Positions 11,135 to 26,122 of a stretch of 27,582 nt of DNA are shown piece by piece; the first letter of the stretch is position 1; the number at the start of each line of letters is the position of its first letter. Source of the stretch: Coriobacteriales bacterium. Lineage in GTDB: Bacteria > Actinomycetota > Coriobacteriia > Coriobacteriales > UBA8131. The notes under the pieces were generated by a model, which was not told the DNA's origin, ran no database searches, and saw only the letters and a program-made list of their open reading frames with translations. The DNA is taken from the NCBI GenBank assembly GCA_031276475.1, contig JAISMZ010000027.1, forward strand, positions 1 through 27,582, read 5' to 3'. The position numbers were made by a program, and so were the translations under genes.

Positions 11135-13437
<2,303 letters not shown>

Positions 13438-13451
<14 letters not shown>

Positions 13452-14289
13452 CGCCGCTCCCCTGCTCGTGCAGATACAGGGACGGTTCATCTGAAAGCGG
13501 ACACGGGGACGGTTCATCTGTCCTGTTTTCCTGCAAGACACCTGCTGCAGCAGTAAGTTTTTCAGAAAACAGGACAGATGAACCATCCCCGTGTCCGCTT
13601 TCAGATGACTCCCGTCCTTCGGTATCGCGCTTTGTGTTGCTGCGCTGTTCGCGTCGGGCCGCACGTCGGGCAACGCGTTCCAGCTCGGCCTCCTGCGCGG
13701 AAAAGCGGCAACCGCAGTAGTTCTGGCGATAGAGGCCGGCCTGGCGGGAAAGGGCCACCGCCTCGGAGTAAAAAGCGCGAAAATCGTCCTCGCGGGTGCT
13801 CAGCCCGCAGGTCGCAGCCGCACGGGCCAGTTCGGCATTGATCGTCTCCACAAACTGATAGGGGCTGATGGTCAGGGTGCTGGCGATGCAGGCAATGCCC
13901 CGCTCGGCCGCCACCCGGGCCGCAGCTTCAAAGCGCAGGCGATAGCAGGCACTGCAGCGCCGCAGGCGGGCGGCGCGATTGGCTGCGTAATCGGGGCTGT
14001 TAGCGATCAGCGGGTAGGGCCCGCCAAAGACTGCGACGTCCTCCTCCCAAAGTAAGCCCTGATAGTCGGGCGCACTGAAAGGCAGCCCGAGGGAGCTTGC
14101 CCAGGCCACAAAAGTCTCCAACCGGCGCTGGTACTCGTCCTGTGGTTGAATATTCGGGTTAAAGTAAAAGGCGTGTACGCGCAAACCATCGCGCGCCAGA
14201 AACGACAGCGGAATGATGGAGCAGGGGGCACAGCAGACGTGAAGCAGGAGATCGGGTGTACCGGTTTTACTCAGCGAATCAGCCCTCAT
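13438..14289 (-). CDS. queH: Epoxyqueuosine reductase QueH with an element-derived C-terminal extension
   Basis: LLLHVCCAPCS, FYFNPNIQP..EY.RR, CSACYRLR, STLTISPYQ and LYRQNYCGCRFS. Directly upstream of queA-tgt. Confidence 0.92.
13470..13628. repeat. Composite ~160-bp palindrome (BIME-like, four GGGA(C/T)GG-core units) in the queH 3' end
   Basis: 44-bp arms at 13487-13530 / 13565-13608 (43/44). Outer pairing GGACGG/CCGTCC and GATAC/GTATC. A 15-nt direct repeat GGGACGGTTCATCTG at 13479 and 13506. A central 12-bp palindrome CTGCTGCAGCAG (13542-13553) lies exactly on the symmetry axis. Confidence 0.88.
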
Positions 14290-14328
14290 GGTATTTGTCA
14301 GAATCGCCCATGCCGGGCACACCGACAG

Positions 14329-25845: not shown

Positions 25846-25867
25846 CCCAAGGATCCTTTCTCAACAC

Positions 25868-26100
25868 TGCTGTCGGCCGGTATCCTGACTCCCGCTTCAT
25901 CCTCCAAGGCGCCTTCTCATCCGTCCACTACAGACGGACAATGGCATCTGCCTCTTTGTCAGCGGTCACAGTTGTGGTTTACAGTCCGGTTACGATGCCC
26001 CGCTCCTGGCGACATCGCCCTGGTTCCGTAGGAGGCTCGTGACGCTCTTCGTCACGCGTAAGCCTCGCTCTAGTTCGGCGGTTTTCGCCACCGACAGCAA
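25868..26100 (-). ncRNA. Cobalamin (AdoCbl-class) riboswitch
   Basis: Minus strand shows P1 TGCTGTCGG/CCGACAGCA, CTACGGAA, CCGGACTGTAAACCACAACTGTGA, CCGCT/AGCGG, the B12-box GCCATTG-TCCGTC...GACGGA-TGAGAAGGC and GAGTCAGGATACCGGCC. Confidence 0.92.
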
Positions 26101-26122
26101 CCCTGTATTGAGTTCGTGGCTG

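Follow-up and report, generated by a model that had tools for sequence, protein, structure and literature searches.

A probable RAYT-associated REP cluster translated at the end of queH in an uncultured Coriobacteriia lineage

The large palindrome at the 3' end of queH is very probably (at about 85%) a REPIN/BIME-like cluster of REP units which belongs to a RAYT-associated family, was inserted in frame into the dispensable tail of queH, and is passively tolerated there. It was studied in a window of 27,582 nucleotides, the whole stretch of DNA that was analysed. The reading is based on the structure of the element, its membership in a repeat family, the association of this family with RAYT genes in relatives, the ancestral overlap of the queH stop with the queA start, and a read-through layout which recurs at other gene junctions.

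The REP units would represent selfish or domesticated mobile DNA which arrived by single-strand transposition of the RAYT type. The insertion would have hit the 3' part of queH, coding for a non-conserved and probably disordered C-terminal tail, at a point just upstream of the ancestral overlap. Because the units are almost devoid of stop codons and the insert does not shift the frame, ribosomes would read through the element, add about 53 unselected residues and terminate at the old stop within queA. The existing translational coupling of queA to queH would thereby be retained. Only in-frame copies would survive selection at such a site, and the tail would tolerate the insert.

The palindrome and the junction of queH with queA

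An earlier note on this DNA had described a hairpin of about 160 nucleotides with core arms of 43/44 bp at the end of queH. A repeat finder recovered this near-perfect palindrome at 13470-13628, with two arms of 44 nucleotides (13487-13530 and 13565-13608) which are 98% complementary and separated by 34 nucleotides. It also reported two direct units on the left arm, 13470-13493 and 13497-13520, which are 88% alike and have a spacing of 27 nucleotides. Folded as RNA of the gene (-) strand, the element forms 64 base pairs around the axis, from 13626:13473 inward to 13550:13545, only two of which are G-U pairs, and the 159 nucleotides from 13470 to 13628 yield -111.8 kcal/mol. RNA folding had been named as a check, and a context of 221 nucleotides gave -128.8 kcal/mol as compared to -67.4 +/- 4.4 kcal/mol for dinucleotide shuffles (z = -14.0), with none of 200 shuffled sequences as stable as the native one. 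The arms consist of REP units as had been stated, but not of two good units each: the outer unit on the right is degenerate, and the make-up is 2 + about 1.5 units, that is about 3.5 instead of four, in a sequence taken from a short-read MAG contig. The motif CTGCTGCAGCAG (13543-13554), which had been placed on the axis, is displaced by one nucleotide from the long-arm axis. The features of the region are collected in Table 1.

Table 1. Features around the queH-queA junction (positions in the window)
Feature	Position	Strand	Basis or remark
Presumed tgt, follows queA in the operon; approximate start	11135..12292	-	ORF list
queA	12285..13451	-	ATG 13449-13451, SD GGGGAG 13457-13462; PF02547 E 1.4e-118
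Second superfamily element, A-type unit within a 25-bp hairpin, in frame in queA	13111..13185	-	-69.7 kcal/mol, z -10
queH (epoxyqueuosine reductase)	14289/14322..13438	-	PF02677 E 7.7e-47; PDB 7lc5/9dco
Giant hairpin, probable REPIN/BIME-like cluster of B-type REP units	13470..13628	-	structure and unit family; copies on 33 contigs
Outer left REP unit, GCAGATACAGGGACGGTTCATCTG + AAA	13470..13496	+	27-nt spacing within direct repeat family D1
Inner left REP unit, GGACACGGGGACGGTTCATCTGTCC at 13499-13523, with TGTTTTC arm extension	13497..13530	+	25-mer match at G000:C183:13499-13523
Central spacer, asymmetric, contains CTGCTGCAGCAG	13531..13564	.	comparable spacers on C25 and C269 (also B-type)
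Inner right REP unit, inverted, core GGGATGGTTC with one mismatch	13565..13598	-	13572-13596 with 2 mismatches to consensus
Outer right unit, degenerate, indels versus left outer unit	13599..13628	-	partial pairing: 13612-13617 and 13622-13626 only

The geometry of the junction proved to be as the earlier note had it. The queH frame passes through the palindrome without a stop and ends with TGA at 13438-13440, which results in an overlap of 14 nucleotides between the queH stop and the queA start, and 7 nucleotides lie between the base of the hairpin and the queA Shine-Dalgarno sequence. The C-terminal tail had been put at about 60 residues, mostly encoded by the repeat. The repeat does code for about 53 residues (approximately 232-285), but the tail which follows the catalytic domain is longer, about 80 amino acids. 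The catalytic domain itself occupies about 13684-14250. In the frame of 294 amino acids (a form of 283 amino acids is on record) the Pfam match of QueH ends at residue 211, and the alignment to the Thermotoga maritima structure 7lc5 ends at residue 213. The frame which follows queA is, judged by its sequence, presumably tgt.

On its own the open queH frame is poor evidence; the palindrome lacks stops in three of its six frames. In the consensus units five of six frames are free of stops for the B-type and all six for the A-type, and as the units are thus nearly stop-free in all frames, read-through is an expected property of the family and not special to the queH copy. The codon log-odds in the queH frame amounted to -5.4 for 13460-13630 versus +47.5 for the body of the gene. 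The repeat part of queH bears no codon-usage signature, i.e., it is not shaped as a coding sequence.

The repeat family, its transposase and the sites of its copies

The element is not specific to the junction of queH and queA but is one of more than 100 dispersed copies of a REP family. The MAG to which the window belongs (G000) has 2.07 Mb in 299 contigs, is 82% complete, and its shortest contig measures 2.55 kb. The core of ten nucleotides, GGGACGGTTC, occurs in it in 178 exact copies as compared to 2 in a reversed-genome control; used as a query string for the literature, it returned unrelated primer matches only. Two main types of unit, A and B, share this core and differ in their flanks, which are complementary to each other within each type, the stems on either side of the constant core covarying. 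The 25-mer of the B-type, GGACACRGGGACGGTTCATCYGTCC, which builds the queH palindrome, was found 51 times in G000, 57 times in the related genome G010 and never in controls. For the 23-mer of the A-type, CACAGAGGGACGGTTCTTTTGTG, there were 73 copies in G000, 22 in G007, 7 in G002 and again none in controls. Inverted pairs are joined head to head ('+-' in 13 cases, '-+' in 0), and nested palindromes of two, four and seven units occur, with central spacers specific to the family. A CRISPR array was ruled out: spacings of 27-40 nucleotides leave spacers of about 2-15 nucleotides, and the units occur inverted.

The largest palindrome observed is one of seven nested units with 282 nucleotides (C108 2216-2497, locus L021, G000:C108:240-4118), for which a context of 362 nucleotides folds with -284 kcal/mol as RNA. 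It lies in frame within an open frame of 1293 amino acids with RNase_T exonuclease and DinG-type helicase domains. Another observation concerns the assembly: 87 of the 178 exact cores are located within 200 nucleotides of a contig end, where only 6% of the genome are found. That half of the core copies lie at contig ends accounts for the fragmentation into 299 contigs, and the REP family is probably its main cause. The window, too, begins inside an A-type unit, its positions 1-17 being identical to the core of the queA element on the reverse strand.

Units with the same or a nearly identical core flank a RAYT gene in four related genera. In G010 (contig C103) B-type units are located on both sides of a Y1_Tnp gene. 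In G002 (C35) the units are of the A-type, with one unit about 40 nucleotides before the ATG of the RAYT gene and three inverted units from the stop codon on, and in G017 (C183, A-type) and G007 (C191, a variant) a Y1_Tnp gene is flanked in the same layout. The RAYT of G010 passes the NCBIfam equivalog NF047646 'REP-associated tyrosine transposase' with 86 bits at a cut-off of 80, the score of the G002 protein is just under the cut-off, and both proteins carry the HUH (GNHVH) and YIHxNP motifs. As units flanking a RAYT gene are the classical REPtron arrangement, the family is, judged by its sequences, a REP/REPIN-RAYT system.

The units recur letter for letter in other genera of the same family, the A-type in G007, G002 and G017 and the B-type in G010, where the 25-mer of the inner left unit of the queH element, GGACACGGGGACGGTTCATCTGTCC, is present on contigs C26, C36, C103 and C138. 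Units of 23-25 nucleotides were thus seen to be identical across G000, G002, G007, G010 and G017, although the QueH proteins share only 45-48% identity. Identical units, each type with its own RAYT, point either to horizontal spread or to a transposase which constrains them strongly. In the 82%-complete MAG of the window there was neither a PF01797 match nor a tblastn match to the RAYTs of the four relatives. A RAYT gene of about 0.8 kb between REP arrays could easily have been lost from an assembly of 82% completeness which lacks contigs shorter than 2.5 kb.

The positions of the copies were classified with a codon-usage classifier and compared to random positions of the genome. Same-strand junctions hold 14 of the 76 interior clusters versus 4% of the random positions. 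Another 14 of the 76 lie in frame within genes, as compared to 48% of the random positions, so that this class is depleted but far from absent. Single-unit 'in-frame' matches on C110, C201, C22 and C281 proved to be chance matches with one mismatch and without REP flanks and were dropped. In a strict recount after removal of such chance single-unit matches, 45 interior clusters remained: nine in frame within a gene, nine at a same-strand junction, 25 with at least one non-coding flank, and two in other positions. The upstream gene reads through 6 of the 14 junction copies, with its stop 8-43 nucleotides past the unit, and in five of these six it overlaps a candidate start codon of the gene downstream, which is the layout of queH/queA.

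Two of the copies inside genes lie at gaps in alignments with known structures. The queA element (Table 1) coincides with a gap of 42 amino acids (query 90-133) versus the T. maritima QueA structure 1vky. A two-unit element is translated in the Zn-binding region of RecQ, at residues of about 421-454 (locus L032, G000:C89:1630-3804), where the alignment to PDB 4q47 shows a gap of about 38 residues. More in-frame elements were found in open frames with Pfam domains of a DinG-like helicase/exonuclease, AIR synthase (PurL/PurM-type), MFS and NAD(P)H-hydrate dehydratase. At a further locus (L026, G000:C221:3703-5187) a B-type unit at C221 4231-4264 is located between the HPPK (folK) and TP_methylase domains of one open frame of 495 amino acids, which may be a fusion bridged by the repeat or the read-through of two genes.

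The junction in relatives and the weighing of alternative explanations

According to the earlier note the hairpin carries the queH stop into the overlap with queA. This could not be upheld, since in most repeat-free relatives the stop and the start already overlap, by 4, 7 or 14 nucleotides. In one of them (L013) QueH ends with ...GTRDADG* at an overlap of 14 nucleotides, whereas QueH of the window ends with ...GSGDADR*. A comparison of QueH C-termini in relatives, which the note had recommended, yielded repeat-free tails which vary from 25 to 90 amino acids after the conserved YCGC motif and are non-conserved, charged or of low complexity. Because repeat-free relatives have the same overlaps or even fusions, the overlap is, on this comparison of genomes, ancestral, and the in-frame insertion would merely have kept it; queA was presumably translationally coupled to queH from before. 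A search of 5.8 billion proteins for an empty-site allele or a close relative returned only the QueH of the window itself and matches of at most 56% identity. Fusions of QueH with QueA in a single open frame were seen in two genomes of the same order (L016, G028:C42, and L018, G020:C2), with more than 400 amino acids, cut by the end of the locus, in the former and about 563 amino acids in the latter. These fusions suggest that the group favours a link, physical or through expression, of the two queuosine enzymes.

Such a link might also be what the tail serves for. The tail including the repeat-encoded peptide would then be a selected feature of the protein, e.g., a flexible linker which tethers QueH to QueA, and the presence of QueH tails throughout the family and the two fusions are in line with it. 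The tail sequences are not conserved, however, the repeat part bears no coding signature, and copies in unrelated frames on C92, C25 and C221 give near-identical peptides, which makes selection on the tail scarcely credible. Highly improbable, too, is an assembly artefact, in which short metagenome reads were wrongly joined at a repeat and gave rise to the inverted duplication or to the unit number. The assembler evidently struggled with this family in a MAG of 299 contigs with half of the core copies at contig ends, but the queH element lies 13 kb from either end of a contig of 27.6 kb, the unique sequence on either side is what synteny predicts, the tail of queH and the start of queA, and the reading frame is kept. 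Furthermore, the same '+-' architecture with similar spacers is found at more than 20 interior loci in this and other genomes, and the arms of about 45-60 nucleotides are below a typical read length.

More thought has to be given to the idea that the hairpin was co-opted as a post-transcriptional control element of the queH-queA-tgt operon. It might refold behind ribosomes and become an RNase III site or a roadblock which sets the ratio of QueH to QueA and Tgt, or it might act as a 3' stabiliser of a processed queH message. With about 45 continuous bp and -112 kcal/mol the helix is very stable as RNA, it is positioned exactly at a gene junction within an operon, and copies of the family are enriched at same-strand junctions. 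In E. coli, REPs stabilise the mRNA upstream of them. REPs near a stop codon are also said to lower translation via ribosome stalling, as Liang, Rudd and Deutscher reportedly found in 2015. On the other hand, the same units are present at more than 100 unrelated places, including the interior of enzymes, and relatives handle the same junction without a repeat. The earlier note had proposed a ribosome-dependent gate on the initiation of queA. The Shine-Dalgarno sequence and the AUG lie outside the hairpin, and their predicted unpaired probabilities were essentially unchanged when the repeat was removed in silico, so that such a gate finds no structural support. There was also no Rfam 15 match to the element at gathering score, the sole match in the window being a cobalamin riboswitch at 25858-26110, and no sign of an intrinsic terminator, as the hairpin is followed on the - strand by ACGAGCAGGGGAG / ACGAGCAGGGGAGCGGCGAUG and not by a U-tract. 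All in all, a co-opted control element is considered unlikely.

The queA start region is predicted to form a local helix of its own (window 13405-13462, - strand), in which the Shine-Dalgarno sequence and AUG pair with queA codons 11-17 (GGAGCGGCGAUG with CAUCGCCGCCGCUCC). As a candidate gate this helix was rejected with a z of -0.2, no better than shuffled sequence, and the predicted pairing is probably a by-product of GC richness.

A bolder proposal would be that the family as such is adapted to translation, with units which contain no stops in 5-6 of 6 frames and encode disordered peptides rich in Gly, Ser, Pro and Asp, and that the translated helix of 45 bp at queH-queA works as a ribosome-dependent valve. 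The odds for this are small. If it were true, the helix would be melted only by ribosomes translating queH, the refolded helix would be cut or would stall the ribosomes that follow, and the output of QueH would be tuned against that of QueA and Tgt.

With the hairpin read as a passively tolerated REP cluster, some effect on expression is still probable for a hairpin of such strength in a translated region. Slower passage of ribosomes, cutting by RNase III or 3' protection of the message of queH would then count among the generic side-effects of REPs and not as a designed switch. RNase processing, mRNA stabilisation and formation of a cruciform, which the earlier note had raised, are possibilities that apply to any REP.

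Known repeats compared and significance

REPINs and RAYTs have been described (PMC3116915, PMC3337134), and the Coriobacteriia family resembles the REP/REPIN/BIME sequences with RAYT (TnpA-REP) of Pseudomonas, E. coli and Stenotrophomonas (PMC3116915, PMC3337134, PMC3479197) in several respects. Its short, palindromic unit reaches copy numbers from tens to hundreds, inverted doublets give long hairpins, arrays occur, a single RAYT-type gene is flanked by units in related genomes, and positions between genes of the same direction are preferred. In contrast to classical REPs, the consensus of the Coriobacteriia units lacks the 5' GTAG tag, an invariant 10-mer, GGGACGGTTC, occupies the loop between covarying stems, the units nest into palindromes of up to 282 nucleotides (seven units), and about 15-20% of the interior clusters are translated. 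The host also differs, being an uncultured Coriobacteriia lineage with no RAYT found in the 82%-complete assembly.

Intragenic REPs, often in repair and helicase genes, have been catalogued in several species; some are located at the COOH terminus, clusters encode 43-82 amino acids, and they were read as tolerated passengers (PMC3733652). To these and to the Rickettsia palindromic elements (RPE) of the same paper the present units are alike in that palindromic repeats are in frame in real genes. The definition given there places a GTAG or CGTC tetranucleotide at the end of the stem; neither was found in this position, and CGTC lies inside the invariant core. Unlike the RPE, the units are of unrelated sequence, their CGTC is part of the core (GAACCGTCCC) and not an end tag, and they flank a RAYT gene in relatives, whereas the Rickettsia-type (CGTC) repeats have no dedicated transposase (PMC3733652).

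A third comparison is with the mycobacterial interspersed repetitive units (MIRU), for which the behaviour at operon junctions is similar. The MIRU are direct tandem repeats; their reading frames extend over the stop of one gene and the start of the next, by which translational coupling is kept. They were reportedly described in 1997 by Supply et al. as operon-junction repeats which are open in frame. The queH/queA copy and five further junction copies behave in the same way, being open in frame and overlapping a stop and a start. The Coriobacteriia units are, unlike the MIRU, palindromic, of unrelated sequence and RAYT-associated, so that the behaviour is shared but not the membership.

The palindrome clearly adds a new case to a known phenomenon. 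Translated REPs, C-terminal ones included, have already been published, no purpose-built switch for queA was seen, and no new regulatory principle is revealed. What is gained is an explanation of the odd C-terminus of this QueH, in which about 50 residues are derived from a repeat, as are stretches of other proteins of this organism, and this calls for caution on the side of annotators. In addition, a REP-RAYT system is documented in uncultured Coriobacteriia, the copies of which often survive in coding sequence and at overlaps of stop and start. This makes the family useful for studying the spread of REPINs and how they are tolerated by proteins and by coupled operons.
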